A DNA stretch of 64,000 bases. It comes from an uncultured delta proteobacterium. GTDB taxonomy: Bacteria; Myxococcota; Myxococcia; Myxococcales; Anaeromyxobacteraceae. Positions 528 through 33,050 of the stretch are shown one piece after another (the first letter of the stretch is position 1; every line of letters starts with the position of its first letter). The position numbers and the translations under genes are program-made. The notes under the pieces were generated by a model, which was not told the origin of the DNA, ran no database searches, and worked only from the letters and a program-made list of their open reading frames with translations. Location of the stretch: the NCBI GenBank assembly GCA_963828255.1, contig CAWHDZ010000003.1, forward strand, positions 1-64,000, read 5' to 3'.

Positions 528-528
528 G

Positions 529-1536: not shown

Positions 1537-3431
<1,895 letters not shown>

Positions 3432-5683: not shown

Positions 5684-5688
5684 GCGGG

Positions 5689-7591: not shown

Positions 7592-7644
7592 GCGTCCCAG
7601 CGCCCGGCGGCAGACGCCCTCCCGGAACGAAGGCGATCCGCCGC

Positions 7645-10052: not shown

Positions 10053-10209
10053 GAGGGCTTCCATCCCGGTTCGGGTCGTTTTCCACAGAGGCGCGTCCCG
10101 TCACCCGGACGGGGCGCGCTCGACCCGATCGCATACCGCAACCGGCGGGATTTTGACAGTCGTTGTCGCGTGGGCAAGTGACAGGATCGCCTCCGCCGGC
10201 CGGGAGACC

Positions 10210-12003: not shown

Positions 12004-12019
12004 GACGGGGGGTGACCGG

Positions 12020-12289: not shown

Positions 12290-12366
12290 CCGCTTCCTCC
12301 CTGCCTTTGACCTTAGCACGCGACGTCGCGGGCGCTATGCTCGCGGCGGCGGCCCAGGGAGGTCTG

Positions 12367-13230: not shown

Positions 13231-14114
13231 ACGGAGTCGGGGTCGACGTAGAGGTCGACCACCTTGATTCCGAAGTGCAGGTGCGGGCCGGTGACGCGTC
13301 CGGTCGCGCCGACCTTGCCGATCTGCTGTCCGCGACGGACCTGTTCGCGGTGCCGGACGTCGAAGTCGGAGAGGTGAAAGTAGACCGAGAAGAGGCCGGC
13401 GCCGTGGGCGATGGCGACGCTCTTTCCCGAGGCAAAACAGTCACGTACGAGCACCACGACGCCGTCGTTCGTGGCCAGGACCGGGTCGCCGACGGCCCCG
13501 GACAAATCCGTCCCGTAGTGCTGGCTCTGCTTCTTCCCGTTGAAGACCCGGCGCTCTCCGAACTGGCCGGTGACCCGCGCATCGCGTGGCGGGCCGAATG
13601 GACCGACGAAGAGGGGAGGCTCGAAGGGACGGGAGAAAGCCTCGCGGAAGGCGGCCTGGTCTTCCTCCATTCGTCGCTTCTGTTCGGGGGAGGGTGCGAT
13701 GAACCTGGGCTCGACGGCGAGCTGGGTCTCGGGGAATGCGGGGTCGACGACCTCGACCGAGGCGATGAGCGGGTCGCGGCGGCCGGCGAGGCGAACCTCG
13801 ACCTTGAGGGTCCCGGGTTCGAGCTCGACCGGCAGGGCGGCGATCGCCTGGAGGCCCGCGGGGGTCGGGAAGAAGTGGAGGCGGCGGACGGGGGTGGCGC
13901 CTGGCACCGCGACGAGCACGGTGCCGGACGTGGAGGAGGCCGAAGAAGGCGAGACGTCGGTCACGGTGACCAGGAGCGCGTCGCCCGGCCGGGCGCGCCC
14001 GGGGGAGACGCGGACCGTGGGTGTCTTCGACGGACCTGGATCGGTCGGAAACGCCGGCGCCACGAGCAAGGCGACGGCGGCGACCGCGAGGATTCTGAAG
14101 TAATGTCGAGCCAT
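13170..14114 (-). CDS. M23 family metallopeptidase
   Basis: HYGTD (HxxxD), YFHLS, GRVTGPHLHF and a signal-like N-terminus. Confidence 0.88.
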   Translation of the reverse strand: MARHYFRILAVAAVALLVAPAFPTDPGPSKTPTVRVSPGRARPGDALLVTVTDVSPSSASSTSGTVLVAVPGATPVRRLHFFPTPAGLQAIAALPVELEPGTLKVEVRLAGRRDPLIASVEVVDPAFPETQLAVEPRFIAPSPEQKRRMEEDQAAFREAFSRPFEPPLFVGPFGPPRDARVTGQFGERRVFNGKKQSQHYGTDLSGAVGDPVLATNDGVVVLVRDCFASGKSVAIAHGAGLFSVYFHLSDFDVRHREQVRRGQQIGKVGATGRVTGPHLHFGIKVVDLYVDPDSVYRLAFASPEPAVPSPAPAP

Positions 14115-15231
14115 GGACGCCTTCAAGCCGCACCTTTCTGGACTGGCCGCCTACCCCTACAGGAAGGTCGAAGCGGCGATCAAGCTGGACCAGAACGAAA
14201 GCCCCTGGGACCTTCCGGAAGACCTCAAGAATCGTGCGCTGGAGCGGATGCGCCACGCACCGTGGAACCGATACCCGGACATGCACGCGGAGAGTGTCCG
14301 GGCCAGCGTCGCCCGATTCCTGGACTGGCCCGAGGAGGGGATCGTCGTCGCGCCCGGTTCGAACTTCCTCATCCTCGCGCTGGCCCAGGCGGCGAACAGG
14401 GTCCTCGACACCTCTCCATCGTTCGCATTCTACGAGGGAGCCGCGCGGGTGACCGGCACGCCGTACACGTCGGTGCCCCTGGGGCCGGACTTCGGACTTC
14501 CGGTGGACGAGTTGGTCCGCGAGATGGACCAGGGGGCGCCGGGGGTGGTGTTCGTCGCGACGCCCCACGCTCCGACCGGCGCGGTCTTCCCGGTGCCGGA
14601 CGTGGCCCGGGTGGCCGAGAAGGCCAGGGAGCGCGGGTGGATCCTGGCCGTCGACGAGGCCTACTGCCAGTTCTCCGGCACCGACCTGCGTCCGCTCGCC
14701 CGAGGGAATCCAAGCGTGGTCATCCTGAGAACTTTCTCGAAGGCTTTCGGGCTGGGAGGAGTGCGCGCCGGGTTCCTTCTCGCGGTGCCGGACGTGGCGG
14801 TGAAGCTGCAAGCGATGCTCCCGCCCTTCGACGTTCCGGTCCACACTGCCGCCGTGCTCGAGACCGTCCTCGAGGCGCCGGGCCGAGCCGCCGACATCGG
14901 GGTCCTCCTGGCCGCTGAGAGGGACCGGGTGCTCGCCGACCTCGATCGTCACCCGACATGGCGCCCTCACCCGAGCCGCGCGAACTTCTTCCTCGTCCGC
15001 ACGCCGGATGCGGAGGTCGCCTGGCGGTCCCTCCTGACGCGCGGGATCCTCGTCCGGCGCCAAGACCACCTCCCCGGACTGAACGGATGCCTGCGGGTGT
15101 CGGTAGGCACTCCGGCCCAGAACGACGCGTTCCTGAAGGCGGCCTTCGAGGCGGTGGAGGACGACCCCGCCGGGCCCGGCCTCGGCGATACGGCCCGAAA
15201 CAGGCCTGCGCCGGACCCCGAGCCTAGCTAG
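14113..15231 (+). CDS. hisC: Histidinol-phosphate aminotransferase family
   Basis: IKLDQNESP, NRYPD, VDEAY, LRTFSKAFGLGGVRAG, ANFFL, LRVSVGT. Confidence 0.85.
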   Translation: MDAFKPHLSGLAAYPYRKVEAAIKLDQNESPWDLPEDLKNRALERMRHAPWNRYPDMHAESVRASVARFLDWPEEGIVVAPGSNFLILALAQAANRVLDTSPSFAFYEGAARVTGTPYTSVPLGPDFGLPVDELVREMDQGAPGVVFVATPHAPTGAVFPVPDVARVAEKARERGWILAVDEAYCQFSGTDLRPLARGNPSVVILRTFSKAFGLGGVRAGFLLAVPDVAVKLQAMLPPFDVPVHTAAVLETVLEAPGRAADIGVLLAAERDRVLADLDRHPTWRPHPSRANFFLVRTPDAEVAWRSLLTRGILVRRQDHLPGLNGCLRVSVGTPAQNDAFLKAAFEAVEDDPAGPGLGDTARNRPAPDPEPS

Positions 15232-15338
15232 AGCCTCCATGTCCGGTCTTCGCCAGCGTGCAGGTCCACCGCGCGCTGGTCGATGTCCGGCACCGACGAC
15301 GCACCGAGGCACCGACGACCCTGGAGGGAGCAAGCACC

Positions 15339-15764
15339 ATGGCAATTCCGTGGACCCCGGCACTCGCGATCGGCGTCCCCGAAATCGACCACCAGCACCA
15401 GGAACTGTTCCTCCGGATCGAGCGTCTCGTCCAGGGGATGTCGCGCGGCGACGCCGCGGACATCGCGCGTCTCCTAGAGTTCCTGGGGCAGTACGTCGTG
15501 AAGCACTTCGGGGCCGAGGAGCGATGGATGCTTCGAAGCGCCTATCCGGATTACGTCCGCCACAAGGCCGAGCACGAGAGATTCATTCGCGACTACGAGC
15601 AGATGACCCGGGAGTTCCGGGAAAAGGGACCGAACGTCCTGGCGGGAATCCGGATGAACAACTGGATCGCCGAATGGCTCAAGCAACACATCAGCCGGTC
15701 CGACATGGAACTCGGCCGGTTTCTCGCCACGAAGGTGGTGAGCGGCGACCTCGACGGGCCTTGA
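15339..15764 (+). CDS. Bacteriohemerythrin
   Basis: GVPEIDHQH, HFGAEE, HKAEH, WLKQHISRSD di-iron ligand pattern. Confidence 0.92.
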   Translation: MAIPWTPALAIGVPEIDHQHQELFLRIERLVQGMSRGDAADIARLLEFLGQYVVKHFGAEERWMLRSAYPDYVRHKAEHERFIRDYEQMTREFREKGPNVLAGIRMNNWIAEWLKQHISRSDMELGRFLATKVVSGDLDGP

Positions 15765-15797
15765 CGGCCCCGGGTCGCCGCCAGACCTACGCGAGGG

Positions 15798-16001
15798 TCA
15801 GGACTCGACCTTGAACCCGATGCGGACGGTCACCTGGAACTCGGAGACCTCGCCGCCCTTCACGGCGCCGCGGATCTCGGCGACCTCGAACCAGCTGACG
15901 TTTCGAACCGACTTGCTCGCGCCGGCAACCGCCGACTTGATGGCGTCAGCGACGCTCTTCGACGAAGTGCCGACGACCTCGATCTTCTTGTAGGTGGCCA
16001 A
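15798..16001 (-). CDS. Dodecin (flavin-binding)
   Basis: TTG start. YKKIEVVGTS...AI..A...RNVSWFEVAEIRG...EFQVTVRIGF. Confidence 0.9.
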   Translation of the reverse strand: MATYKKIEVVGTSSKSVADAIKSAVAGASKSVRNVSWFEVAEIRGAVKGGEVSEFQVTVRIGFKVES

Positions 16002-16226
16002 GGTTCGCTTCCTTTCGTGCTGCCTTGAGGGGTGGGAGGGAAGAAGATAGGACAGCTGGATTCTAACGTCCCGGCCCACGTCCGGCACCACGTCGGGCAC
16101 CACGTCGGCACCGGGTCCGCTCGCCGGACGCACGCTGGACGAGGCGCGCCACTTGACTCGCCGCGCCTGCGGCCGGTAGGTAGGCGTGGGGGGGACCCGG
16201 TTTTTCCCGAGGGACCACGAGGGCAA

Positions 16227-17765
16227 ATGGCTGATCTCTTTGACAAGTGTGCCGCCTGGAAGGACGCGCAGGTACTCAAGCTTGCGGGTCACTACCCGTA
16301 CTACCGGGTCATCCAGGAGACGAACGGCACGGAGGTGGTGGTCGACGGCAAGCGCCTCATCATGGCTTGCTCGAACAACTACCTGGGGCTGGCCAACGAC
16401 CCGCGCGTGATGGAGGCGGCCGCCGAGGCCGCTCGCCGCTGGGGCGCATCGACGTGCGGCTCGCGCGTCCTGAACGGGTCGATGACCCTTCACGACGAAC
16501 TCGACCATCGACTCGCGGAATTCCTGGGGAAGGAAGCCGCGGTGGTCTTTTCCACGGGCTTCGGGACCAACCTGGGGACCATCTCGTCTCTCGTCCTCCG
16601 GCACGACATGATCTTCGCGGACCGGATGGTCCACGCCTCCCTCGTCGAAGGCATGCAGGCTGCCTACGGCGAAACGAAGCGCTTCCGGCACAACAACATG
16701 GAGGACCTGGAGCGGCTCCTCGCCAACGCCGAGCCGAACGCCGGGAAGCTCATCGTCGTCGACGGCGTCTACTCCATGGAGGGGGACCTCGCGAACCTGC
16801 CTGCCATCGCCGAGCTGAAGCGGAAGTACGGCGCACGGCTCATGGTCGACGAGGCGCACGGGTTCGGCGTCATGGGCCCGGGCGGCAAGGGCACCGGCGA
16901 GCATTTCGGGGTCCACGACGACGTGGACCTCATCATGACGACCTTCTCCAAGTCGCTCGCCTCGATCGGCGGCGTCATCGCGGGGCCTGCCGACGTCATC
17001 AACTGGATCAAGCACAAGGCCCGGGCGCTGGTCTTCAGCGCGTCCATGACCCCGTCCTCGGCGGCAGCGGCCCTGAAGGCCCTCGAGATCATCCAGCAGG
17101 AGCCGGAACGTCGGGAACGGCTCTGGGACATCTCCGAGCGCGTCCACCGGGAGCTCCGAGGAATGGGATTCGACACCCAGCCGTCGGTCTCGCCCGTGGT
17201 GCCGGTGGTGATCGGAGATCAGGCCCTGACCTTCAAGTTCTGGAGGAAACTCACCGACCTGGGCCTGTTTGCGAGCCCGGTCGTGAAGCCCGCAGTCGAG
17301 AAGGAACTCGTCCGGACCGTCTTCATGGCCACCCACACGGACGACCAGATCGACCGCGCCCTGGAGATGTTCCAGAAGGCTGGCAGGGACCTCGGCGTCA
17401 TCCCGGCCGAGCGACCGCATACCCGCGTCGAGGTGAAGATGGCCCGTCCCGGCGTGACGGGCTTCTACTCCTCCCACGAGGGGGACACGACCGCGACCGG
17501 GACCCAGGACGGTGGCGCCCGCCTCGAGATCCTCGACGTGCTCACCCAGGCGGACGAGCCGTGGTCCCGGCGGTTGTCCAATGCCGCCGAGATGATCACC
17601 TGGAAGGCGATCAACGCGGGCCCCGAGGACTACCTGCAACTCAAGGAACTTCCGTTCAAGCTCTGGGACAAGCGGCGGCAGCTTCCGACCATGCTCCTCT
17701 CCGCGGGCATGAACTTCATGGCTCGCCGGCAGCAGAACGGCAGCGACAACCAGCGGGACGCCTGA
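16227..17765 (+). CDS. spt: Serine palmitoyltransferase-like alpha-oxoamine synthase with C-terminal extension
   Basis: SNNYLGL, GSRVLNGS, DGVYSMEGD, DEAHG, TFSKSLASIGG (PLP Lys). Adjacent to bCerS- and CerR-like genes. Confidence 0.8.
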   Translation: MADLFDKCAAWKDAQVLKLAGHYPYYRVIQETNGTEVVVDGKRLIMACSNNYLGLANDPRVMEAAAEAARRWGASTCGSRVLNGSMTLHDELDHRLAEFLGKEAAVVFSTGFGTNLGTISSLVLRHDMIFADRMVHASLVEGMQAAYGETKRFRHNNMEDLERLLANAEPNAGKLIVVDGVYSMEGDLANLPAIAELKRKYGARLMVDEAHGFGVMGPGGKGTGEHFGVHDDVDLIMTTFSKSLASIGGVIAGPADVINWIKHKARALVFSASMTPSSAAAALKALEIIQQEPERRERLWDISERVHRELRGMGFDTQPSVSPVVPVVIGDQALTFKFWRKLTDLGLFASPVVKPAVEKELVRTVFMATHTDDQIDRALEMFQKAGRDLGVIPAERPHTRVEVKMARPGVTGFYSSHEGDTTATGTQDGGARLEILDVLTQADEPWSRRLSNAAEMITWKAINAGPEDYLQLKELPFKLWDKRRQLPTMLLSAGMNFMARRQQNGSDNQRDA

Positions 17766-17794
17766 CGCGTTCCCCCCACCGTCAGGACCCTGCC

Positions 17795-18976
17795 ATGAAC
17801 AGACCCGTCGTCGTGCCGGACATCACCGAGGTCGCCCATCCCGCCAAGGACGTCGAGGTATCCCTCGTCACGTCCGGCCTCGACAAGGACCGGTTCATCC
17901 GGTTGCCCTTCGAGCTCTACCGCGATGACCCGTTCTGGGTCCCGCCGCTCGTCATGGAACGGCACGAGTTCCTCGACTCGTCCAAGAACCCCTTCTTCCG
18001 CCACGCCGAGGTGGCGCTGTTCCTGGCGCGTCGGGACGGAAAGCTGGTCGGGCGGATCGCGGCCGTCGAGGACCGGAACTACAACGCCTTTCACGGGTGC
18101 AAGGTCGCGTATTTTGGGCTCTTCGAATGCATCGACGACCCCGGTGTCGCCGCCGCCCTGGTCGCCGCTGCAAAGAACTGGGCCCGCTGGCGCGGACTGG
18201 CCCAGCTCATCGGGCCGATGAACCTGTCGACCAACCAGGAATGTGGCCTGCTGGTCGACGGATTCGACTCGTCGCCCTACGTGATGATGCCGTACAACCC
18301 GCCCTACTACGCCGACCTGGTCGAGGCCTGTGGATTCCGGAAGGCGAAGGACCTGTTCGCGTTCGAGCGGTCGGCGAAGGTGCCGGCGCCGGAGCGGTTC
18401 ATCCGCGTCGCCGACAAGATCCGGGCACACGAGGGAATCACGGTTCGCCCCCTGGACGTCGCCAACTTCGAGGCCGAGGTGGTCCGGATCAAGGCGGTCT
18501 ACAATTCCGCCTGGGAGAAGAACTGGGGATTCGTCCCCATGACCGACGCCGAGTTCGACAAGCTGGCGAAGGACCTGAAGCAACTGGTGGTGCCGGAGTT
18601 GGCGCTCATTGCGGAGGCCCACGGGGAGCCCATTGCCTTCTCGCTCACGGTGCCGGACATCAACCAGGCCTTCAAGAAGGTCGGTGGTCAGCTGACGACC
18701 TTCGGGCTTCCCATCGGGCTCGCGAAGCTTCTTTGGTTCCAGAAGCGGATCACAAAGGTCCGGCTCATGGCCCTCGGGATCAAGGAAGGCTGGCGCAGGC
18801 GTGGAATCGACGCAGTTCTCATCGTCGAGACCATCCGCCGCGCGGACCAGGCGGGCTACGAGGGAGGCGAAGTCAGCTGGACCCTCGAGGACAACACCCT
18901 CATCAACAAGGCCATCGAATCGGCGGGGGCGAGGCGGTCGAAGGTCTATCGCCTCTACGAAATGCCGGTCGAGTAG
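17795..18976 (+). CDS. GNAT-like protein, probable bacterial ceramide synthase
   Basis: WVPPL, NPFF, VGRIAA, FGLFEC, MMPYNPPYY, NWGFVPMT, SWTLEDN. Lies between spt-like and reductase genes. Confidence 0.75.
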   Translation: MNRPVVVPDITEVAHPAKDVEVSLVTSGLDKDRFIRLPFELYRDDPFWVPPLVMERHEFLDSSKNPFFRHAEVALFLARRDGKLVGRIAAVEDRNYNAFHGCKVAYFGLFECIDDPGVAAALVAAAKNWARWRGLAQLIGPMNLSTNQECGLLVDGFDSSPYVMMPYNPPYYADLVEACGFRKAKDLFAFERSAKVPAPERFIRVADKIRAHEGITVRPLDVANFEAEVVRIKAVYNSAWEKNWGFVPMTDAEFDKLAKDLKQLVVPELALIAEAHGEPIAFSLTVPDINQAFKKVGGQLTTFGLPIGLAKLLWFQKRITKVRLMALGIKEGWRRRGIDAVLIVETIRRADQAGYEGGEVSWTLEDNTLINKAIESAGARRSKVYRLYEMPVE

Positions 18977-18979
18977 GGC

Positions 18980-19972
18980 GTGCGCTGGTTCGTCACCGGG
19001 GCGACCGGCTTCATCGGAACGACCCTCATCGAGCGGCTGGTTGGCCGGGGCGACGAGGTGCGAGCCCTGGTCCGGGACGTCAGTCGCGCGGCGGAATTGG
19101 GGGAGATGGGCGCGGAGCTCGTGCGCGGGGATGTCGCCCGTCCGGATTCGCTCGTGGACGTGGTGCCGGACGTGGACGTGGTGGTGCACCTAGCAGGCCT
19201 CGTCAAGGCGCTGAGCCGGAAGGAGTTCTTCTCGGTCAACGTTGAGGGGACTCGAGCCCTGGCACGGGTCGCGGCTCGGTCGGGTCGGGCAAAATTCGTC
19301 CTTGTGTCGTCATTGGCGGCCGCCGGGCCTTCGACGCCCGGAAAGCCGAGGACCGAAACGGATCGTCCGGCACCGGTCAGCATTTACGGCCAGAGCAAGC
19401 TCGCGGCGGAAGATGCGCTGCGCGCGTTCGCGCCAGCGCTCGACGCCTCGATCATCCGCCCACCGATAGTCTACGGGCCAAGGGACAAGGAGTTCCTGCC
19501 ATCGCTTTTCAGGCTGGCCAGGACAGGCGTGATGCCGAAGTCGGGAATGGGAGTGAAGCACTACAGCCTCATCCACGTGGAAGACCTGGTCGCGATGATC
19601 CTCGACGTGGCCGACCGAGGTGCCCGGGTCGACGAGGCGGGTACGTCCGGGGTCTACTTCTGCGCAGACGGCGTGGACTACACCTGGGAGGCGCTCGCAC
19701 GCGGCGCACTGGGGGCGCTGGGCCGTCGGGGCACGGTCGTGCCCATTCCGGAAGTCATCACGTGGCTCGCGGCCGGAGCATCGTCCGCAGCCGCCCGGAT
19801 CAGCGGACGCCCTGCCATTCTCTCCCTCGACAAGATGATGGAGATTCGTGAGCCGGCGTGGACGTGCTCCTCCGACAAGGCGAGACGGGAGCTCGGGTGG
19901 GCGCCTCGCGTGTCCTTCGTCGACGGGATGAGGGATTCCGTAAAATGGTTCCGGGAGCGCGGGCTCGTCTGA
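18980..19972 (+). CDS. NAD-dependent epimerase/dehydratase, probable ceramide reductase
   Basis: TGATGFIG, VSSLAA, YGQSK, RPPIVYGPRD. Operonic with the two previous genes. Confidence 0.75.
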   Translation: MRWFVTGATGFIGTTLIERLVGRGDEVRALVRDVSRAAELGEMGAELVRGDVARPDSLVDVVPDVDVVVHLAGLVKALSRKEFFSVNVEGTRALARVAARSGRAKFVLVSSLAAAGPSTPGKPRTETDRPAPVSIYGQSKLAAEDALRAFAPALDASIIRPPIVYGPRDKEFLPSLFRLARTGVMPKSGMGVKHYSLIHVEDLVAMILDVADRGARVDEAGTSGVYFCADGVDYTWEALARGALGALGRRGTVVPIPEVITWLAAGASSAAARISGRPAILSLDKMMEIREPAWTCSSDKARRELGWAPRVSFVDGMRDSVKWFRERGLV

Positions 19973-19981
19973 CGGGGCGTG

Positions 19982-20650
19982 TCACCCGCTTGGGGCTCCC
20001 TGGAGTTCCGCGAACGCGCCTGCAACCCAGCTGGGGAATCCGAAGAACGGGCGTACCACCATGTCGGGCCGGTGGCGGCGCACGCGACGGCCAATCTTGA
20101 GAGTGAACAGGCGAAGGTAGGCGATCCTTCGCTCCACGGGACTTCTCCCGAGTGCCAGGTAGGCCGGAGAATCGGAGACGAGCGGGTCGTCGGATCCGAA
20201 AGCGTAGTGGCCGTGGCTTGACCACACCCAATCCCTTGGACGCTTCACCATGCCCGCGCGGACGGGATTCAGGTCGCCGTACAGCATCACCTCGAGCTCG
20301 TGGCGCCCGCCATCCTGAACCCTGGGGGACCCCAGGCGCTCCATCACGACCTGGCCGCGGCCCCCGGTCCGCCGATTGGACCATCGCGCGAAGCACTGGT
20401 TCACGACCTTCCAGAAAGAACTGAACGCCGGCTGCCCCTGCATCGACCTGCAGACCACGTGGGGATGGGTGCTCATCAAGCAATAGCTGCGGATGTGGAT
20501 CCCGTACCGGTCCTTGTACTTCCCTAGAAGGTCGAGGAATTTCCGCCGCGCCTCGTCGGAGTCGAGGACGGGCGACCGGTTGTGGCTCCGCCAGAAGCAG
20601 TGATGTGTGGTTCCGGAGCCTACGAGTCTGGAACGCGGGAAGCGCGGCAC
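19982..20650 (-). mobile_element. REP-associated tyrosine transposase (RAYT, Y1/HUH family)
   Basis: VPRFPR...THHCFWRSHNR, YCLMSTHPH (HUH), LYGDLNPVRAGMV..PRDWVWSS. Single ORF, no tnpB. GTG start inferred. Confidence 0.88.
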
Positions 20651-20755
20651 AGTGAGGTCATAAGCAAACGGCGGGCCGGAAGATCGGCGAGACCGAGTCC
20701 TCGTCCCGAGTCGACGCCCCGAGTCGACGTCCGGCACCAAGGCACCAAGCGGGCC

Positions 20756-21424
20756 CTAATGCGCTGTCGGCGCGGTCCGATCCTCGCGCGGAAGGGTTCC
20801 GAAGACGATATCCCACAGAGGCGTGGAAACTCCGTAGCGCGCCTCCGGCGTCTTGAAGTGGTGCAGATAGTGATGCTTCCGAAGTTTCGCACCCGCCGCC
20901 GTGCGAGGCTTCAGGTGGTGGACGGCATAGTGGGTCATGTCGTACCAGAGGTACCCGACCACCAGTCCCGCGAAGAACAGGTCGAAGAATCGAGGTCCTA
21001 CCGCGAGGTAGATGGGGTACCCGAGCACGACCGCGAGCAGGATCGACATCACCGGAGGCATCACGAGCCGGTCCGGATCGTGCGGCCAGTCGTGGTGGAC
21101 GCCGTGGATGAGATAGTGAACGTCCCGGGAAAGCTCCGAATTCGGGTTCGGCGTGTAGTGGAACACCCACCGGTGAAGGACGTACTCGAGCAACGTCCAG
21201 AACGCGAGGCCACCAAGGAGGGCGCCCGCAACGGCGCCCCGTGAGACGCCCGGGACCTGCAACCCTCGGTAGACGAGGTAGGCGATCACCGGCACCCAGA
21301 CAACGAGAACCTGCCAGGGCTTCACCCGGGAGAGGTGCTTCTCGATCCAGTCGACGCGGAACATGCGCGGGCTGCCGCTTTGCGTGGCGGGGTGGCCTGG
21401 GGGCCGAGGTACGAGCCAGAACAT
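20756..21424 (-). CDS. Fatty acid hydroxylase / sterol desaturase family (FA2H/Scs7-like)
   Basis: His boxes EYVLHRWVFH, IHGVHH, YDMTHYAVHH, HHYLHH, plus RLVMPP and YGVSTPLWDIVFGT. Confidence 0.9.
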   Translation of the reverse strand: MFWLVPRPPGHPATQSGSPRMFRVDWIEKHLSRVKPWQVLVVWVPVIAYLVYRGLQVPGVSRGAVAGALLGGLAFWTLLEYVLHRWVFHYTPNPNSELSRDVHYLIHGVHHDWPHDPDRLVMPPVMSILLAVVLGYPIYLAVGPRFFDLFFAGLVVGYLWYDMTHYAVHHLKPRTAAGAKLRKHHYLHHFKTPEARYGVSTPLWDIVFGTLPREDRTAPTAH

Positions 21425-21602
21425 GGGTGCTTCTCCTCGAGGTGCTGGGCCAGCTGGGGTACGCGCGCTGACCAGTGCCCACCTTTGGTGCCGGACATTG
21501 TTAGGACAGACATTCTAAGACGACGCGCCCTCCTCTCGCGGAGAATCGGCGTCCTGTCAAGGCCTTGAAGGAGGAGCGGGAGCGTGGCAAGAGGCTCGCC
21601 CG

Positions 21603-23738: not shown

Positions 23739-23878
23739 GAGCGGGAATGAGAACGGGCCTAGAGTCCAGACTTGGCTTGACGCACGGCGTCGCCGGCAGC
23801 TAAACCGTCCCATCCACGCCGTCGCCACCGTCGCCGATTGACTCCCCGTCAGGTCGGCGAACCGAAGGAGGCAGAAAA

Positions 23879-24589
23879 ATGACGATCCGAACTCGAGTCG
23901 CCGCAGCCACCCTTGCCGCTGCCCTGATCGCCGCCGCCCCCGCCTCGGCTCTCGCGCAGTCGGAGACCGCGGCCCGACCCGGCCTGACCGGTTGGAGCAT
24001 CGTCGGGACGGAGACGGTGTCCGGCCGTGCGGCGGTCGACGTGCAGTCCGGCTGGCCGTCCACCACCTTCGGCTACACGTTCGGGCTGTCGCCGACCGCC
24101 GACGTCAGCCTCAGGCTCGGCCTGCTCTATGGCTACGAAGGAACGACATCCACCCAGTTCGGCCTCTCGTTCTACGCCCCGATGCGCTTCCAGCTTGTCC
24201 AGAGCCGGGACTTCAAGCTGCTCTTCCACGTCGACCCGGGGCTGAAGCTCTACACGACCTCCAGCGCCCAGTTCGGGTTCCAGTTCCCGGTAGGGCTGGT
24301 GATGGGATTCCCCGTGCAGCCAAATCTCGAGATCGGCGTCGGTCTCGACTTCAACATGACCCTGCTCGTCTCCGGAAACTTCGAAGGAAAGGGCGCACCT
24401 GCGTTCATCTTCGGTCCAGCGGCTGGACCCTACGTCGAGTACCACCCCACGCCCGACCTGTCCGTGGGCCTCAACACCCGCTTCGGCGCCGCCATCAACG
24501 CCTACTCGTCCTTCGGGGGAAACGCCGGTGGCACGAGTACGCAGTTCGCCTTCACGACGCAGCTCTTCGTGGGGTACCGCCTGCCTTAG
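23879..24589 (+). CDS. Putative outer-membrane beta-barrel protein
   Basis: Signal peptide (ALA-Q), Gly/aromatic beta-strand pattern, C-terminal VGYRLP, GGAGG RBS. Confidence 0.7.
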   Translation: MTIRTRVAAATLAAALIAAAPASALAQSETAARPGLTGWSIVGTETVSGRAAVDVQSGWPSTTFGYTFGLSPTADVSLRLGLLYGYEGTTSTQFGLSFYAPMRFQLVQSRDFKLLFHVDPGLKLYTTSSAQFGFQFPVGLVMGFPVQPNLEIGVGLDFNMTLLVSGNFEGKGAPAFIFGPAAGPYVEYHPTPDLSVGLNTRFGAAINAYSSFGGNAGGTSTQFAFTTQLFVGYRLP

Positions 24590-24711
24590 CTGGCCCTCCT
24601 CCACGTCCGGCACCGACGCCGGCACCGACGCCCCGACACCGGGCACAAACACCGGCCCGACGCTCGACGCCGGCGCGGACCCGGTCCAGTCCTCCGCCAA
24701 TCCGACCCTTC

Positions 24712-24740
24712 TTGACAAAGGGGGGGGGTTCCGCTAGGAA
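24712..24740 (+). promoter_or_regulatory. Probable sigma70 promoter of rplM-rpsI
   Basis: TTGACA-17 nt-TAGGAA. Confidence 0.5.
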
Positions 24741-24776
24741 CGCCCCTCCCGAATTGCTCGAAACACCAGGTTTTCC

Positions 24777-25223
24777 ATGAACAAGGCTACCCACAGCACC
24801 ACGCAGGCGGAAGCGCTCCGGTCACGGAAGTGGTGGATCGTCGACGCGACGGACCTGACGGTCGGCCGCGCCGCCACCCGCATCGCGACCCTCCTCAAGG
24901 GAAAGCACAAGGTGTCGTACACGCCCTCCCTCGACACCGGGGACTTCGTCGTCGTCGTCAACGCCGAAAAGGTCCGCTTCACCGGCAAGAAGGAGCAGGA
25001 AAAGCTCTACTTCTCGCACACCATGCACCCCGGTGGCGCCAAGTTGACGCCCGCGGACAAGGTCCGCGCCAAGCACCCCGAGGACATCATCACCTTTGCC
25101 GTGAAGCGCATGCTGCCGCGCAGCGCCCTCGGCCGGACGATGATGACCAAGCTCAAGGTCTACGCCGGCTCCGAGCATCCGCACGCCGCGCAGAAGCCCG
25201 AAGCCTTGAAGATCTCCGCCTAG
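24777..25223 (+). CDS. rplM: 50S ribosomal protein L13
   Basis: [40 protein letters not shown]. Confidence 0.98.
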
Positions 25224-25233
25224 AGGAACATCG

Positions 25234-25626
25234 ATGGCCACGACGCAGAAGATCACCACCGGTCGCCGCAAGGTTTCAGTCGCTCGCGTCCGGCTCCTCC
25301 CGGGGACCGGCAACATCACCGTCAACGGTCGCGCCCTCGACGCGTACTTCGGCCGCGAGACCTCGAAGATGATCCTGGTCGAGCCGCTCAAACTCGTCGA
25401 CCAGATGGGCAAGGTGGACGTGTTCGTGAACGCGAACGGGGGAGGGCTGTCCGGCCAGGCCGGCGCCATCCGCCACGGCATCTCCCGCGCACTCGTGACC
25501 ATGAACCCCGAGTGGCGCCCGGTTCTCAAGAAGGCCGGGTTCCTGACCCGCGACGCCCGCGCGGTCGAGCGCAAGAAGTACGGCCAGCCCGGCGCCCGCA
25601 AGCGCTTCCAGTTCTCGAAGCGCTAG
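25234..25626 (+). CDS. rpsI: 30S ribosomal protein S9
   Basis: [39 protein letters not shown]. Confidence 0.98.
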
Positions 25627-25957
25627 CCGGTCTTCGACCGCAGCAAAGACGCCGCCCGCGCCCCCGTGGCACGGACGGCGTTCTTGTTTCTGCCGCGCGT
25701 GCGCTGCCGGCTCCCCCGTCCCCGTTCCCCTGCCACGTCCGGCACCGGCCGGCACCGGCCACGTGGCACCGGCCACCCCCTGCCACGTCCGGCACCGGCC
25801 GCGTGGCACCGGCCGCGTTGGACACCGACGCAGCCTGCTGTGGGCCGGCATCGCACAACCGCCGCCACCCTGGGGCATCCGGTCCCCACCCGCTATCGCG
25901 GGGGACATTCCGGTTCGTGGAAACGGCGCTTCCCCGGTGGTACGCTCCCGTACCGTC

Positions 25958-27256
25958 ATGGAGCTGAACGAGATCCTGCAGATCGCGCTGCGCTCCGGTG
26001 CCAGCGACATCCACCTCAAGGCCGGCCTTCCGCCGATGTTCCGCATCGACGGGGCGCTCGTCCCGCTCAAGGATGCACGACGCCTGCCGCCCGAGGAGGT
26101 GGCGCGGATGGCGCTCGGCATCATGAACGAGTACCAGCGGGAGAAGTTCAAGCAGACCAACGAGGTCGACCTCGCCTACGGGGTCCCCGGCCTGGGCCGC
26201 TTCCGCGTCAACGTGTTCCAGCAGCGTGGCTCGATCGGCGTGGTCCTCCGCGTCATCCCGTTCCGGATCCAGACCATCGAGCAGCTCATGATGCCGAAGG
26301 TACTGGAGAAGGTCGCTGGGGAGTCGCGCGGCCTCGTCCTCGTCACCGGCACCACCGGCTCGGGCAAGTCCACGACGCTGGCGGCGATGGTCGATTTCAT
26401 CAACGCCACCGAGACCTGCCACATCATGACGATCGAGGACCCCATCGAGTTCCTCATCCGCGACAAGCGGTCGATCGTGAACCAGCGCGAGGTGGGCGTC
26501 GACACGATGAGCTTCGGACAGGCGCTGAAGAGCGCGCTCCGGCAGGACCCCGACGTCATCCTGGTGGGCGAGATGCGCGACCTCGAGACCATCGAGACCG
26601 CGCTCACTGCGGCCGAGACGGGCCACCTGGTGATGTCGACCCTCCACACCCTCGACGCCACCGAGACCATCAACCGCATCATCTCCGCCTTCCCTCCGTA
26701 CCAGCAGAAGCAGGTGCGCCTGCAGCTCGGCGCAGTCCTGCGGGCCGTGATCAGCCAGCGGCTCGTGCCGCGTGCCGACGGCCACGGGCGCGTGCCAGCA
26801 ACCGAGGTGCTGCTCGCCACGGCACGGGTCCGCGAGCTGGTCGAGGACAAGGACCGGACCAGGGAAATCCCCGACGCCATCGCCCAGGGGCACGTCGCCT
26901 ACGGGATGCAGACCTTCGACCAGTCGCTCATGGGGCTCTACCGCTCCGGGCTGGTGAGCTACGAGGAAGCCCTACGCCAGGCCACGAATCCCGACGACTT
27001 CGCCCTTCGCGTCTCGGGAATCTCCGGCACCAGCGATTCCAAGTGGGACAACTTCGAGCAGTCCGCGGAGGCCGGCCAGGGGCGTCCGCCTCCGGCCCGC
27101 GCCACCCCCTCCCGACCGTCTGCACCGGCCGTCCCGGCTCCCCGGCCCCCTGTGGCTCCGGCGGTGCCCATTGGGCGGGTCGCGGCACGCCCGACCGACG
27201 GGGCGGCTACCCCGGCTGCCCCGGCCGACGACGACTTCCAGATCGAGCGGTTCTGA
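25958..27256 (+). CDS. PilT/PilU family retraction ATPase
   Basis: ASDIHL, GTTGSGKSTT, TIEDPIE, LRQDPDVILVGEMRD, TGHLVMSTLH, GMQTFDQSL. Pro-rich tail. Confidence 0.93.
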   Translation: MELNEILQIALRSGASDIHLKAGLPPMFRIDGALVPLKDARRLPPEEVARMALGIMNEYQREKFKQTNEVDLAYGVPGLGRFRVNVFQQRGSIGVVLRVIPFRIQTIEQLMMPKVLEKVAGESRGLVLVTGTTGSGKSTTLAAMVDFINATETCHIMTIEDPIEFLIRDKRSIVNQREVGVDTMSFGQALKSALRQDPDVILVGEMRDLETIETALTAAETGHLVMSTLHTLDATETINRIISAFPPYQQKQVRLQLGAVLRAVISQRLVPRADGHGRVPATEVLLATARVRELVEDKDRTREIPDAIAQGHVAYGMQTFDQSLMGLYRSGLVSYEEALRQATNPDDFALRVSGISGTSDSKWDNFEQSAEAGQGRPPPARATPSRPSAPAVPAPRPPVAPAVPIGRVAARPTDGAATPAAPADDDFQIERF

Positions 27257-27293
27257 GGGGCATGGGCCCCGCCGCGGCTCCCTGGATCACCGC

Positions 27294-27791
27294 TTGACCG
27301 ACTCCCCGCAGTCCCGCGCCCGTTCCAGGGCGCTTCGCCTGCTCGCCGCTCGCCCTCGGACCGAGGCGCAGGTCCTGGAGCGGCTCGCCAGGGCCGGGTT
27401 CGAAGCTGAGGCCGAGGGGGTGGTGGCCTGGCTCAGGGACCTCCGGTACCTCGACGACGACGCCTTCGCCAGGGATCGGGCAGCGTCGCTGGTCGCCCCG
27501 GGACGGCTTGGACCGCGCATGGCGGAGCGTCGGCTCGTCGCGGCCGGAATCCCCAGGGATGCCGCTCGGCGGGCCGTCCGGGAGGCCCTGGGGGACGAGG
27601 AGACGAAGAGATGCCGGCTTCTCGCCGAGCGGCGCGCCGGGGCGGCAGGGGCGGTGCCAGGGGCGGTGCCGGACGACCTTGGCGAGCGCGAGAAGGTCCG
27701 TCTTTCCAGGTTCTTGCTGGGGCGGGGGTTCTCCGGGCGTGCCGTCTCGGCCGCACTTGGAGTGTACGTGGACGACGCCGAAGACCGCTGA
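27294..27791 (+). CDS. recX: Regulatory protein RecX
   Basis: ALRLLAARPRT, YLDDDAFA, GPR....L...GI, RFLLGRGFS. Start uncertain. Confidence 0.8.
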   Translation: MTDSPQSRARSRALRLLAARPRTEAQVLERLARAGFEAEAEGVVAWLRDLRYLDDDAFARDRAASLVAPGRLGPRMAERRLVAAGIPRDAARRAVREALGDEETKRCRLLAERRAGAAGAVPGAVPDDLGEREKVRLSRFLLGRGFSGRAVSAALGVYVDDAEDR

Positions 27792-27807
27792 TATGTTCCC
27801 CGACCCG

Positions 27808-28626
27808 ATGCGTCCCCGGAACCGGATCTGGTCGTTCGTCGCGGCCACCGCCATGGCCCTCTCCGCCTGCGCCAAGAGCGTGCCGGCCGTGAAGTACGAG
27901 TCGCAGGCCGAGCAGGAGTACGTGGCCGGCATCACCGCGCTCGACAACCGGGACTTCCCGGACGCCCAGAAGATCCTGGAGCGGGTGCGGACCAAGTACC
28001 CGTACTCGAAGTTCGGGGCGCTGGCCGAGCTCAGGCTCGCCGACCTCCGCTACGAGCAGGGGAAGTTCATCGAGGCCGCCGACGGCTACCAGGCCTTCGT
28101 GAAGATCCATCCGTCTAGCCCCGAGGTCGACTACGCAGCCTACCGAGGCGCCATGTCGCGGTGGGCCGACGCCCCGACCGAGTTCTTCCTCTTCCCGCCG
28201 GTGCACGAACGGGACGTGGCCCAGATCACAAAGGCCGCGGACGGCATGGCCAGCTTCGTCGAGAAGTTCCCGAACTCGAGGTACGCGCCGGACGCGCGGG
28301 AGAAGCTCGGGAAGGCCCGTGGGATCCTGGCCGAGCGGGACTGGTACGCCTTCGAGTTCTACAAGAGGCGTGAGAAGTGGCAGGGCGCGGCCTTCCGGCT
28401 CGAGAAGCTCATGAAGGACTTCCCGGAAAGCTCGCGCGAGCCGGAGGCGCTCTGGCAGCTGGCCGACATGTACGTGAAGCTCTCCGAGCGCTTCAAGGCC
28501 CAGAAGACCCTCCAGACGCTCATCGTGAAGTACCCGACGAGCGCGCAGCGCGGGAACGCCGAGAAGCTCCTTGCCGACCTCCAGATCCAACCCGAGCACC
28601 CCGAGCTCTGGAAGACGCCCTGGTAG
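27808..28626 (+). CDS. bamD: Outer-membrane assembly lipoprotein BamD
   Basis: LSAC lipobox, KYPYS, IHPSS..VDYA.Y, FPNSRYAPDA, TPR pattern. Confidence 0.85.
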   Translation: MRPRNRIWSFVAATAMALSACAKSVPAVKYESQAEQEYVAGITALDNRDFPDAQKILERVRTKYPYSKFGALAELRLADLRYEQGKFIEAADGYQAFVKIHPSSPEVDYAAYRGAMSRWADAPTEFFLFPPVHERDVAQITKAADGMASFVEKFPNSRYAPDAREKLGKARGILAERDWYAFEFYKRREKWQGAAFRLEKLMKDFPESSREPEALWQLADMYVKLSERFKAQKTLQTLIVKYPTSAQRGNAEKLLADLQIQPEHPELWKTPW

Positions 28627-28630
28627 CGGG

Positions 28631-29388
28631 CTAGGGCGGCGGCGCAGGTTTCGCTTCCGCACCGGCGCGCCTTACCTCGTGCCCTTCCTGGCGGCGGCGG
28701 TCGCCGCGGCCGCTGCCTGGTTCTGGCGCGCCGACCTGCTGGATGCCGGGTCTGCGGCGACCCTGCAGAGCCCGGAATCCCAGGTGCGGCAGGCGCTCGC
28801 CGCCCAGGGGCGCGCGCACCTGGAGGACATCTACGGGTGGAAGGCGGGGGGGACGCTGGAACTCGTCCCGGTTCGCTACGCCGACGTGGTGCCGGACGTG
28901 GAGGAGGGGGGCGTCGCGCCCGGGTGGTGGCGGTCCTCGATGCCGAGGGGAAGGCCGTCTGGCGCGACCAGGCGGCCATGGTCTCGTACATCGGGCGCGA
29001 GCAGTTCCACATGAAGCCGTGCAAGATCGCCCTGTGGTGCGCCGAGGGCGACCAGTTCGCGCGCCTGCGGGCCGTCCTGCGGACCCTTTTCCGGCGGCTG
29101 GACGCGGCGCGCGGGGGAGAACCCGCCGCCGTTGCGGCACTTGCCGCCGACGACTACCGGGACGGTGCCGCCGACCGGGCCGACCTCGAGGACAGGCTGC
29201 GGCAGGAACTCGCAGCGCCGCGACCCTACATCCGCGTGAAGAGCTGGCAAATCCGGGTCGAGAGGGACGGGGCGGAGGTAGGGGAAGACTTCGAAGTCAC
29301 GGAACCGGATGGCGCGGTCCAGAACCGAAGGGCGCGGTACCGACTGGAGCGCCGGGGCGAGCGCTGGCTGTTCACCTCCGGGCTTTGA
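28631..29388 (+). CDS. Hypothetical membrane-anchored protein, frameshifted at the G-run near 28906
   Basis: Frame A (...YLVPFLAAAVAAAAAWFW...VVPDVEEGG) continues in frame B (RRARVVAVLD...WLFTSGL*). Start not identified. Confidence 0.5.
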
Positions 29389-29584
29389 CACGGACCGAGG
29401 GGCCGTGGCGCGGACGGCCCGGTCCCGCCGCCTGCGAATGTCCGGCACCGCCGCAGGCACCGCCGCAGCCTGCGAATGTCCGGCACCGCCGCAGGCACCG
29501 CCGCAGTTCACCTCCGGGCTTTGAGACCGCCGCAGATGGTAGACTCCCGGCGGACGGCGGGGCCGCCCGGTGACGGGGAGGAAC

Positions 29585-30319: not shown

Positions 30320-30325
30320 GAGAAG

Positions 30326-31480
30326 ATGAGCGAGAGCCCCCCGCGGCTCACCGCGCTGTCGCACGGCGCCGGTTGAGCCTGCAAGATCCGCCCGGCGGAC
30401 TTGGCGCAGGTCCTGCGCCGCCTTCCGAAGGTGGAGGATGCACGCGCTCTCGTCGGTCACGAGACGCGCGACGACGCGGCCGTGTATCGACTGTCGCCCA
30501 CCGAGGCGATCGTCGAGACCGTCGACTTCTTCACGCCGGTGGTGGACGACCCCTACTGGTTCGGCCGCATCGCCGCGGCAAATGCCTTCTCCGACGTCTG
30601 GGCCATGGGCGGCCGCCCCATCTTCGCGCTCAACCTCGTGGCCTTCCCGGTGGGCAAGTTGCCGATGGAGGTGCTGGCCGAGATCCTCCGCGGCGGTTCG
30701 GAGACCGCCGCACTCGTCGGCGCGCCGATCCTGGGGGGGCACAGCATCGACGACCCCGAGCCCAAGTACGGGATGGCCGTCACCGGTCTGGTCCACCCGG
30801 ATCGCATCCTGCGCAACGTCGGTGCCCGGCCCGGGGACCAGCTCCTTCTCACGAAGCCGCTCGGTTCGGGCATCCTCACCACTGCCATCAAGCGCGGCAC
30901 GGCCACCCCGGAGCAGATCGCGGGCGTCACCGCGGTCATGGCCGAGCTGAACCGGAACGCAGGCGAGGTCCTGGCCGCGAGCGGCGCCGTATCGGCCCTC
31001 ACCGACGTGACCGGGTTCGGGCTGCTCGGGCACGCCTGGGAGATGGCCGAGGGGTCGAAGGTCGCCCTGTACTTCGACGCCTCGGCGATTCCCGTCCAGC
31101 CGGACGCCGTCATGCTCGCCGAGCGGGACGTGGTGCCAGGGGGGAGCAAGGCCAACCTCGCCTGGGTCTCGCCGCACGTCCGCTTCGACGCCGAGGTTCC
31201 GCTCCCGCTTCGCGTCGTTTTCGCGGACGCCCAGACGAACGGCGGACTCCTCGCCGCGGTCCACCCCGACCGGTTCCCGACGGTGATGCGGTTGCTCGCA
31301 GACAGGGGGGTCGCGGCTGCCCACATCGGGGAGGTGCGGAAAAGCTCGGAATTCGCGGTGCCGGACGTGGCCGTGGGGTCCGCGGTGCCGGACGTGGCCG
31401 TGGACGTGGCCGTGCCGGACGTGGCCGTGATCCAGGTGTCGGCGGGCACCCCCTCCCGGATGCGGGGCTCGCGCCCGTGA
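30326..31480 (+). CDS. selD: Selenophosphate synthetase with in-frame selenocysteine UGA (codon 17)
   Basis: MSESPPRLTALSHGAG-TGA(30374)-ACKI, then DDAAVY, TVDFFTPVVDDP, GGHSIDD, TDVTGFG, DAQTNGGLL. Confidence 0.95.
30378..30410 (+). promoter_or_regulatory. Candidate bacterial SECIS hairpin
   Basis: CCTGC/GCAGG, AAG/CTT and TCCG/CGGA pairings immediately 3' of the UGA. Confidence 0.65.
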
Positions 31481-32271
31481 CCCCCGCCCTCGTTCTCGCC
31501 CTCCTCCTCGCCGGCTCGCCCGCCGCCGCTCCCGCCCCGCCCGCCTTCACCGTGGTCCTCGACCCCGGACACGGCGGCGAGAAGGACGGCGCCCTCTCGG
31601 TGGAGGGACGCGCGGAAAAGGACATCACGTTGCAGATCGCCCGGCTCCTCCGGAAGAAGCTCGAGAAGCAGGGGGCGCGGGTCGTGCTCACCCGGACGGC
31701 GGACGTCACCGTGGACCTCCCGCGCCGGGCCGCCATTGCCAACGCGGAGGAGGCCGACCTCTTCGTCTCCCTCCACCTCAACTCCGTGCCGGGCGGCCCC
31801 GGCTCCCCGGCCCGCGGCATCGAGACCTACTTCCTCTCCGCCGACGCCACCGACGCCTCGGCGAGCGCCGTCGCAGCCCGCGAGAACGCCGACCGACCCC
31901 GCAGCGACCCGACCGACGCCGTGGGCGGCATCCTCGAGGACCTCGAGGACCAGGCGAACCTGGCCGAGAGCTCCCGCCTCGCCCAGGCCATCCACGGCGC
32001 GCTGGTGCATGGCACACGGGCGCCGGACCGGGGCGTGAAGCAGGCCCCCTTCCACGTGCTCAATGGCGCGCGCATGGCGGCGGTGCTGCTCGAGCTAGGG
32101 TTCGTCTCCCACCCGGTCGAGGGAAAGGAGCTCGCCCGGCCGGCGCGGCAGGAGGCCATCGCCGGCTCGATCGCCGCCGGGATCGCCGCCTGGCGTCGCG
32201 CCGGGACCGCTGATGCGGCGCCCCCGCAGGCGCCCCCGCAGTCGCCCTCCGCCTCGTCCGCCTCGCGCTAG
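31477..32271 (+). CDS. N-acetylmuramoyl-L-alanine amidase (Amidase_3)
   Basis: [40 protein letters not shown] overlaps the selD stop. Confidence 0.9.
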
Positions 32272-32330
32272 TTCCCGCCAGCTCCCCCCAGGTCGCGCCA
32301 GGACCCTCCCGCGGTTATGATGCGCGCCCC

Positions 32331-33050
32331 ATGCGCGCCAACGGTAGGCAGGCCGGCCAGCTCCGGCCCATCTCTCTCGACGTGAACGTCTCGAAGCACG
32401 CCGAGGGCTCCTGCCTGGCCCGCTTCGGCGACACCCACGTCCTCTGCACCGCCAGCCTGGAGAACCGGGTCCCCCCCCACGTGCTCGGCACCGGCGCCGG
32501 CTGGGTCACCGCCGAGTACGGCATGCTCCCCCGTTCCACCAACGAGCGCATGGCCCGCGAGGCGGCCCGCGGCAAGCAGGGCGGCCGGACCCTCGAGATC
32601 CAGCGGCTCATCGGCCGGGCCCTGCGGGCATCCATCGACCTGTCCCGGCTCGGTCCCCGCACCCTCACCATCGACTGCGACGTGATCCAGGCCGACGGCG
32701 GCACCCGCACCGCGGCCATCACGGGCGGCTTCGTGGCGCTCGCGCTGGCGGTGAAGAAGCTGCAGAAGGCCGGCGTCGTGAAGGGCGCCCCCATCGTCCG
32801 GCACGTGGCCGCGGTCAGCGTCGGGGTGGTGGGCGGGGAGGTCCGGCTCGACCTCGAGTACGAGGAGGACTCCACCGCCGAGGTGGACATGAACGTGGTG
32901 GCCACCGGCGACCTCGACCTGGTGGAGGTGCAGGGAACCGCCGAGGGAAAGGCCTTCGGCCGCACCCAGCTCGACCAGATGCTCGACAGCGCGCTGGCCG
33001 GAATCGCCGAGCTCAAGGTCCTCCAGGAGAGGGCGCTCGTCGCCCCGTGA
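32331..33050 (+). CDS. rph: Ribonuclease PH
   Basis: [46 protein letters not shown]. Confidence 0.97.

Follow-up and report, generated by a model that had tools for sequence, protein, structure and literature searches.

A halo of one short DNA word around a RAYT-type Y1 nuclease gene in an Anaeromyxobacteraceae genome

Why should copies of one short DNA word crowd around a single nuclease gene and fall to background level elsewhere? The stretch examined here, called the window, covers positions 1 to 64,000 of contig CAWHDZ010000003.1 (C3) in assembly GCA_963828255.1, from an uncultured member of the Anaeromyxobacteraceae (genome G000). It carries a gene for a RAYT-type Y1 nuclease. An earlier annotation made from the letters of the window, the sequence-only reading, had proposed that this RAYT acts in cis and seeds or maintains its own target sites, copies of the word GTGCCGGAC, in flanking core genes. 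The halo of copies is real and strong, and composition, protein sequence or horizontal transfer do not account for it. As its source we favour, with slightly more than even confidence, a cis-acting nuclease of the TIRYT/RAYT type that would bind and nick the word, repair of the nicks yielding duplications, mutation, and the gain and upkeep of copies.

The word and its halo

An exact-match count found 27 copies of GTGCCGGAC between 13350 and 32804 (16 on the plus and 11 on the minus strand) and none at 1-13349 or 32805-64000. Shuffles of the window held 1.9 copies on average and six at most. G000 as a whole has 120 copies, of which 27 are in the halo, six on contig C2 and 87 in the other ~4.2 Mb, and the remainder of the genome leads one to expect 0.46 copies per 22 kb. 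Among enriched words of length 7 to 12, GTGCCGGAC ranks top in the halo region. The halo reaches about 7 kb on one side of the gene and 12.5 kb on the other, and its G+C content is slightly lower.

All 27 copies are followed by a purine, 23/27 by RT, and 23/27 are preceded by G. The profile of halo copies refines the recognised core to GTGCCGGA, and the word can also be written GGTGCCGGACRT. Halos are also enriched for GTGCCGGAG (51 against 8.7 expected) and GTGCCGGAA (24 against 2.4 expected). Two thirds of the window copies (18/27) lie inside genes and 9/27 between them, and no polarity or regular spacing was seen among the 27. A hairpin structure is unsupported: none of six folded copies formed a stable hairpin (z from -1.7 to +0.9 relative to shuffles), and the profile of 277 copies has no conserved stem. 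In these respects the sequence-only reading was accurate. Its counts, strands, limits and flanking-base figures are the same as ours, and its statements that the word lacks a long hairpin and is mostly intragenic hold; the genome-wide count that it proposed finds the word sparse outside the halo.

The RAYT gene and its promoter

At the centre of the halo lie two features:

19982..20650, minus strand: RAYT/TIRYT-type Y1 HUH nuclease of 222 amino acids, with H62-x-H64, Y124-x-x-x-N-P and a C-terminal helical extension
20664..20677, minus strand: promoter-like element of the sigma-54 type (GG-N8-TTGC), 13 bases ahead of the GTG start

The RAYT call made earlier at this place corresponds to a real open reading frame, which is the sole tblastn match for RAYT in G000. 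It matches Pfam Y1_Tnp (E 5.7e-5), and its score of 48.3 bits against NCBIfam REP_Tyr_transpos is under the cut-off of 80. The best Foldseek match of the protein model (mean predicted local distance difference test score, pLDDT, 82) is 4er8, the E. coli TnpA-REP (E 1.7e-6). The protein could be aligned to 4er8; H62, H64, Y124, N128 and P129 are invariant in 12/12 genus members, and the ratio of nonsynonymous to silent divergence (dN/dS) is 0.11-0.19 within the genus. The C-terminal helical extension is conserved; it gave no match to Pfam helix-turn-helix (HTH) families, and an Atlas search of the C-terminal part returned nothing named.

The element GG-N8-TTGC, which we take to be the sigma-54 promoter consensus, stands 13-17 bases ahead of the start codon in 52/57 homologous loci. 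No sigma-70 promoter was found near RAYT, and the transcript is predicted to be near-leaderless. Only the 5' terminal copy of the word is left at RAYT in the window, the 3' end of the gene abutting the epimerase gene, and the copy at 20729 appears to be the remnant of the left terminal repeat of an element. The gene itself is a hole in the halo: a cognate copy lies inside it in 0 of 12 genus members, and any family variant in 3/57 genes, each time non-cognate or unlabelled.

Origin of the halo

The halo arose after the insertion of RAYT. The gene is present in one copy in G000 and in 12/13 genomes of the genus, and the 11 same-genus loci with wide flanks all have it at the same place with a halo of 12-29 copies. 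The pooled density, which comes from kin genomes that are not independent, is 0.7-2.3 copies/kb between -10 and +7.5 kb and does not exceed 0.33 farther out. RAYT was inserted between two convergent genes, for an epimerase and a fatty-acid hydroxylase; in four genomes of two other genera these genes are ~20-60 bases apart and have no RAYT between them. The order of genes on both sides is common to the sister genus, and the RAYT gene tree broadly agrees with the host tree. Orthologous DNA without RAYT at this place contains nine copies in 308 kb (20 stretches from 11 genomes). Likewise, over 14 sites the word is present in 1/91 outgroup rows, which is the absence from RAYT-less orthologues that the sequence-only reading had looked to for support.

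The sole genus genome without a RAYT match, G008, was considered as a loss of the gene. This was rejected because the genome is 70% complete and the epimerase/hydroxylase region is missing from it; its flank has 12 copies in 9 kb.

Copies inside genes

The intragenic copies are read as VPD (the commonest reading), VRH, RPAP, TSGT and GAGR in G000, and as RCRT in relatives, all six frames being covered. Outgroups have other residues at the same length, for example ERE in the hisC-like gene and VEG in the epimerase and uvrD genes where VPD stands here, and some copies lie within new loop insertions or tail extensions (uvrD, recX, SelD). From these alignments, the intragenic word arose mostly by same-length substitutions. 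The copies are as follows, with fractions giving the alignment rows that carry the word:

13350..13358, plus: M23 peptidase gene, antisense, VRH; 6/11 genus rows, 0/7 outgroup rows
13921..13929, plus: M23 peptidase gene, antisense, TSGT within an expanded linker
14593..14601, plus: hisC-like aminotransferase, VPDV; sister genus ERE; 10/11 genus rows, 0/5 outgroup rows
14785..14793, plus: hisC-like aminotransferase, VPDV; sister genus APD; 11/11 genus rows, 0/5 outgroup rows
15285..15293, minus: intergenic, hisC-like gene / hemerythrin
16080..16088, minus: intergenic; 12-base duplication ending at GGTGCC|GGAC
17813..17821, plus: gene after the serine palmitoyltransferase-like frame, VPDI; 9/12 genus rows
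18650..18658, plus: same gene, VPDI; 11/11 in-frame genus rows; outgroups ATC/GTC CCG GAC
19163..19171, plus: NAD-dependent epimerase gene, VPDV; outgroups VEG/VDG; 10/12 genus rows
19365..19373, minus: epimerase gene, antisense, RPAP; CGT and GCA are frozen rare codons; 12/12 genus rows, 0/5 outgroup rows
20729..20737, minus: intergenic, ~80 bases upstream of RAYT and pointing at the gene; 8-base tandem duplication ending GGTGCC|GGAC
21488..21496, plus: intergenic, fatty-acid hydroxylase / uvrD
22083..22091, plus: uvrD/pcrA, VPDD; 24-base in-frame indel here between two 99.3%-identical strains of a relative
22381..22389, plus: uvrD, GAGR, within a genus-specific loop insertion
23058..23066, plus: uvrD, VPDI; 11/12 genus rows, 1/8 outgroup rows
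23637..23645, minus: uvrD, antisense, VRH; 11/11 aligned genus rows, 0/8 outgroup rows
24605..24613, minus: intergenic, upstream of rplM; 12-base duplication
25737..25795, minus: two copies (25737, 25787), intergenic, rpsI/pilT; short duplications at each
27666..27674, plus: recX; in-frame 12-base duplication ending GGTGCC|GGAC; gain common only to G010
28889..28897, plus: gene after bamD, VPDV; sister genus VPV (read from the alignment)
29440..29486, minus: two copies (29440, 29478), intergenic, 38-base tandem repeat; 12-base duplication at each
31358..31420, plus: three copies at 27-base spacing; SelD C-terminus lengthened by VPDV repeats
32796..32804, minus: rph, antisense, VRH; 3/10 genus rows

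It is the DNA letters that are kept. At 16 sites picked for carrying the word, 415/419 codons retain the exact letters, and CGT and GCA occur in 12/12 species though their usage is 6%. A further test used sites not selected for carrying the word: among peptide stretches able to spell it silently, 95/126 do so at less than 5 kb from RAYT, 75/110 at 5-9 kb and 11/44 beyond, compared with 3/82 outgroup stretches and 51/1485 genome-wide. No copies were found in any genus row of the strongly constrained genes (serine palmitoyltransferase-like, rplM, rpsI and bamD). An explanation at the protein level was rejected, given that the copies use every frame and that rare codons stay frozen.

Eight lineage-restricted gains stand 2, 3, 2, 1, 1, 4, 4 and 3 changes from the nearest other row, six of them at two or more (the null places 80% at one), and gains and indels continue at the species and strain level. 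Frameshifted rows were left out as follows: cerS of G004 from the codon-freezing, fourfold-site A/T, gain and silent-spelling tests, M23 of G004 from the gain and silent-spelling tests, and M23 of G009 and G013 and uvrD of G004 from the gain test.

Breakage and mutation near the word

The word behaves as a breakage site, and only near RAYT. Perfect tandem duplications of at least 8 bases adjoin 42/264 halo copies, compared with 0/86 occurrences of the same 9-mer elsewhere in G000 and 6/1063 control words in the halos. Among 1109 motif contexts of the family, the junction can be placed unambiguously for 40 upstream duplications; it falls at G|TGCC in 17/40 and after GTGC or GTGCC in 12/40; 954 control contexts gave one. 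Downstream duplications are fewer (15, control 6) and their junctions are spread out. In six contig pairs at least 97.5% identical, 6/7 indels of at least 3 bases lie within 12 bases of a copy, zones that make up 4-14% of the aligned columns.

Silent sites are also altered around the gene:

13170..29388, no strand: raised silent divergence and lowered fourfold-site G+C, strongest at RAYT

Fourfold-site G+C is 0.80-0.83 in the genes beside RAYT and 0.93-0.96 at 9-13 kb, and 0.92-0.98 in a RAYT-less sister genome. At these sites, A/T makes up 14-17% up to 250 bases from a copy and 5-7% at more than 500. Silent divergence (dS) between G000 and G003 is 0.82-1.00 in the epimerase, hydroxylase and uvrD genes and 0.26-0.46 in four distal genes, a rise of ~2.5-fold near RAYT; for the same genes, the sister genus without RAYT has 0.59-0.68 near and 0.40-0.78 far. 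The density of the word and of A/T declines gradually with distance. No strand-specific mutation skew was seen around the word or RAYT.

Related RAYTs and their words

RAYT genes of other lineages have halos of their own words, which cover unrelated gene sets. In G019, 51/63 copies of GTGCCGGAG in 140 kb fall at -40 to +10 kb of its RAYT, together with 7 GTGCCGGAC in the same span. When 28 intragenic G019 sites were compared with their G000 orthologues none was shared; an additional one, visible only in a frame of the opposite strand, was. The complete genome G087 has 15/29 copies of GGTGCCGGAGGT within 71 kb around its RAYT gene. In G066, 35/68 copies of GTGCCGGACA in 400 kb are within 20 kb of its RAYT, and the 144 copies of GTGCCGGACAC genome-wide form a peak at RAYT with a long shoulder over hundreds of kb. 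Confinement of the word to the neighbourhood of RAYT, claimed earlier, therefore applies to G000 and does not extend to this lineage; the wide distribution in G065/G066 may reflect a rearrangement or spread at a later stage. G065 and G066 are 91-92% identical and carry 178 and 144 copies, respectively. GTGCCGGACAC was also recorded over several hundred kb in G066:C1, with a dense stretch in G065:C3, a contig without RAYT.

In relatives such as G017, G021, L091 and L092, inverted motif arrays flank both sides of the gene. Other genera have several RAYT copies at varied loci. Within a single genome, the sequence common to paralogues is limited to the stretch between the motif arrays, and they are ~85-95% identical over the element. 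This suggests an order from terminal repeat to local arrays to halo. The sub-branch of L133, L108 and G040 seems to use GTGACGGA in place of GTGCCGGA. Two distant Y1 genes (26-30% identity) have repeated words in 20 kb, GACGCTCAC in 11 copies at L199 (G024:C3) and ACTCTGGGTC in 8 copies at L214 (G020:C1).

The word variant, a label assigned to 36/52 loci, goes with residue 81 of the protein: this is K in 23/23 AC loci and 5/6 GC loci, and Q or R in 7/7 AG loci. K81 aligns gap-free to R78 of E. coli TnpA-REP, and the available text of PMC3479197 describes R78 as making a base-specific contact from a helix in the minor groove. K81 is a candidate specificity residue of RAYT.

Proposed mechanism and alternatives

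Binding and cleavage of the word by RAYT are likely, on the indirect evidence of the duplication junctions and the residue covariation; the enzyme likely also drives local spread and raises the local mutation rate. The word would have begun as the inverted terminal repeat of an element. RAYT is likely to act mostly in cis and to use its K81-bearing helix to bind GGTGCCGGA(C)RT, with predicted nicks at G|TGCC and GTGC|C|GG. Such nicks, with slip-back of the 3' end, fit the junction data. According to the available part of PMC8266576, cleavage by HUH enzymes yields a 5'-phosphotyrosine together with a free 3'-OH able to prime synthesis, and a primed-extension model has been proposed for the amplification of BIME repeats in the text of PMC3333891 to hand. 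Here, the free 3'-OH would prime synthesis, slip back and duplicate the 5' flank. The same primed end may move to another copy close by and write over a partly matching sequence. This would create and restore copies and amount to a molecular drive, held back solely by protein constraint. Locality would follow from the cis action of a sigma-54-regulated enzyme. Repair of the nicks would account for the duplications and the higher mutation rate, and for the way in which intragenic copies are gained and kept.

In its fullest form, this reading makes a domesticated HUH nuclease a cis-acting writer that places a word of 9-12 bases over near-matches in host genes close by, restores it after decay, and sustains a zone of mutation and micro-duplication of 20-70 kb. 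We advance this only tentatively, at somewhat less than an even chance. The cis-acting RAYT that seeds or maintains its own sites, as proposed earlier, thus stands as a pattern, in the locality, the absence from RAYT-less orthologues, the cognate halos and the residue covariation; RAYT itself as the writer does not stand to the same degree, and selection on the sites is a live rival.

Several observations weigh against the favoured account of a cis-acting nuclease. Known TnpA-REP enzymes need a single-stranded DNA hairpin, and the word has none. Words with one mismatch (positions 1-8) are overall not depleted, at 176 against 146 expected. Of the eight lineage-restricted gains, two fall in loose C-terminal tails, and the remaining six are not clearly unlike a model that favours only the last step (37% at two or more changes, 11% at three or more); in this small sample, multi-base jumps to the word are no more than suggestive. 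Tandem arrays, once formed, slip on their own without a nuclease. The A/T rise is confined to ~3 kb in the G019 halo and is not clear in that of G066. Most close homologues have flanking inverted arrays and no wide halo, and a candidate word was found at only 1-2 of 20 distant Y1 loci. Finally, 16/52 rows have no variant label, one GC locus has Q81, and the covariation of residue 81 rests on few independent events since 2-3 changes on the tree suffice for the AG label.

The strongest rival holds that RAYT binds and nicks the word without writing it, and that copies made by ordinary, locally raised point mutation are fixed and kept by selection, a bound enzyme near its own gene being useful for titration, DNA organisation or local evolvability. 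In favour of this account, single-base steps make up several of the gains, silent-site freezing is also expected from purifying selection, and RAYT is vertically inherited under purifying selection with a conserved regulated promoter. However, the copies force amino-acid changes and loop insertions in the uvrD, hisC-like and epimerase genes, the halos of different lineages lie over unrelated gene sets, the copies have neither polarity nor regular spacing, and each is a rearrangement hotspot, a cost that selection would oppose. We regard this rival as unlikely, yet serious.

It is improbable that the word is the site of another host factor, such as a sigma-54 activator or a methyltransferase, with RAYT merely a regulated neighbour. 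Sigma-54 activator sites do lie about as far upstream as the nearest copy, ~80 bases from a gene whose sigma-54-like promoter is 13 bases before it. Nevertheless, the word variant follows the RAYT protein and locus, the word forms the ends common to paralogous elements, and a diffusible factor would not restrict its sites to 20 kb. An island from a word-rich donor, an insertion of RAYT into a word-rich region, or a protein-level VPDV bias, to which the slightly lower halo G+C, the commonness of VPD and the one lineage with the word over hundreds of kb might point, is very improbable and largely refuted by the gene order common to the sister genus on both sides, the intact empty site, the outgroups without the word, the use of all frames, the gradual fall of density and A/T, and the gains and indels still under way in species and strains.

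Relation to known systems

Judged by its sequence features, the locus appears to work like a RAYT-repeat system, fails the REP definition and is closest to the TIRYT/subclass 2.1 group. With RAYT-REP systems it has in common the Y1 HUH fold with Y---NP, a gene that is single-copy, vertically inherited and under purifying selection, a cognate repeat matched to the enzyme, and tandem amplification as in the published 3'-OH-primed model. It differs in the repeat: REPtron and REPIN-RAYT repeats form hairpins that carry a GT[AG]G foot, whereas here there is no hairpin and no GTAG foot. REPs have 20-40 bases, against 9-12 here, and are extragenic and spread genome-wide, whereas this word is mostly intragenic, concentrated around the gene and at background level outside the halo. 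Its formation by same-length substitution instead of insertion, and the local rise in mutation, are also unlike REP systems. IS200/IS605 elements have Y---Q, subterminal hairpins and multiple near-identical copies, unlike the Y---NP, the absence of a hairpin and the more diverged paralogues found here.

The TIRYT/TIRtron elements, as far as the text of PMC3733652 goes, resemble this family in the inverted arrays that flank the gene in relatives, the C-terminal extension and the lack of a REP hairpin nearby. The word does not fit the TIRYT consensus GGGGWSAS, and no HTH domain was detected in RAYT; some terminal inverted repeats (TIRs) are themselves described there as unrelated to that consensus. 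At one distant Y1 locus, the GTGCCTGTCCC repeats share the GTGCC start and resemble GGGGWSAS on the other strand. TIRYT descriptions, in the same portion of the literature, consist of flanking TIRs and dispersed TIR families, and not of a distance-dependent halo inside genes. TIRYT is probably the same as TnpA-Y1 subclass 2.1 and RAYT group 1, as the accessible text of 10.1101/279083 and PMC5581495 indicates. The former puts subclass 2.1 in 14.9% of strains and, in that text, reports no REP-like sequence near its genes.

Two other cases are comparable. Uptake sequences of Pasteurellaceae and Neisseria are short words inside coding regions that shape proteins, and molecular drive is discussed for them in the available part of PMC2817400; they are genome-wide and tied to DNA uptake, whereas the word here is local and tied to one nuclease gene. 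A subclass 2.1 TnpA-REP beside prochlorosin genes was proposed to diversify its neighbours via small indels (10.1101/2020.03.09.984088); the portion of that preprint at hand has no recognition word or halo, and an authors' note withdraws the causal claim. The literature covered, including 10.1101/2021.07.10.451892 and supplements, with the figures and TIR alignment file of PMC3733652 outside the search, describes in the text available neither an intragenic halo centred on a RAYT gene nor GTGCCGGAC. In the supplements, the matches to GTGCCGG that were inspected, two out of five, are hairpin REPs of another subclass.

Neighbouring genes and assembly

RAYT sits inside a cluster at 16227-21424 (a serine palmitoyltransferase-like gene, a gene of 393 amino acids, an epimerase/reductase and a fatty-acid hydroxylase), which we take to be a bacterial sphingolipid cluster. 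The selD gene, above the NCBIfam cut-off, has an in-frame TGA at 30374-30376 on the plus strand, in the context G-A-G-stop-A-C-K, presumably encoding selenocysteine. At 28889-28920, in a G-rich run just past the motif, G000 has one base fewer in the gene that follows bamD than the G010 orthologue has; the shifted frame beside this copy is either an assembly error or a real frameshift.

Contig C2 duplicates window 1-17271 at 99.7% identity. Of 55 difference events between the two, 41 are in one repeat at 7114-7617, which recurs on several other G000 contigs, and the single one within the halo is away from the copies; the comparison is for these reasons uninformative. Further duplicated regions (C6/C10, C4/C37) are found in the assembly, which has 6.6% contamination or strain mixture.

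Significance for the RAYT family and its host

For subclass 2.1, a large RAYT group without REP hairpins, this locus supplies a promoter, a cognate word with predicted nick positions and a residue that may set specificity, and the activity of the subclass is therefore directly testable. In the host, one resident gene is accompanied by the rise in silent divergence and by recurrent amino-acid replacements in nearby helicase, metabolic and envelope genes, which bears on models of bacterial mutation-rate variation. The locus also bears on how REP families begin, from a terminal repeat through a local halo to wider spread, and on convergent changes of the VPDV type, which may be DNA-level instead of adaptive. 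If RAYT does write the word, this would be a site-local molecular drive that reshapes core proteins, with its specificity set partly by one residue and its activity switched on via a sigma-54 promoter.

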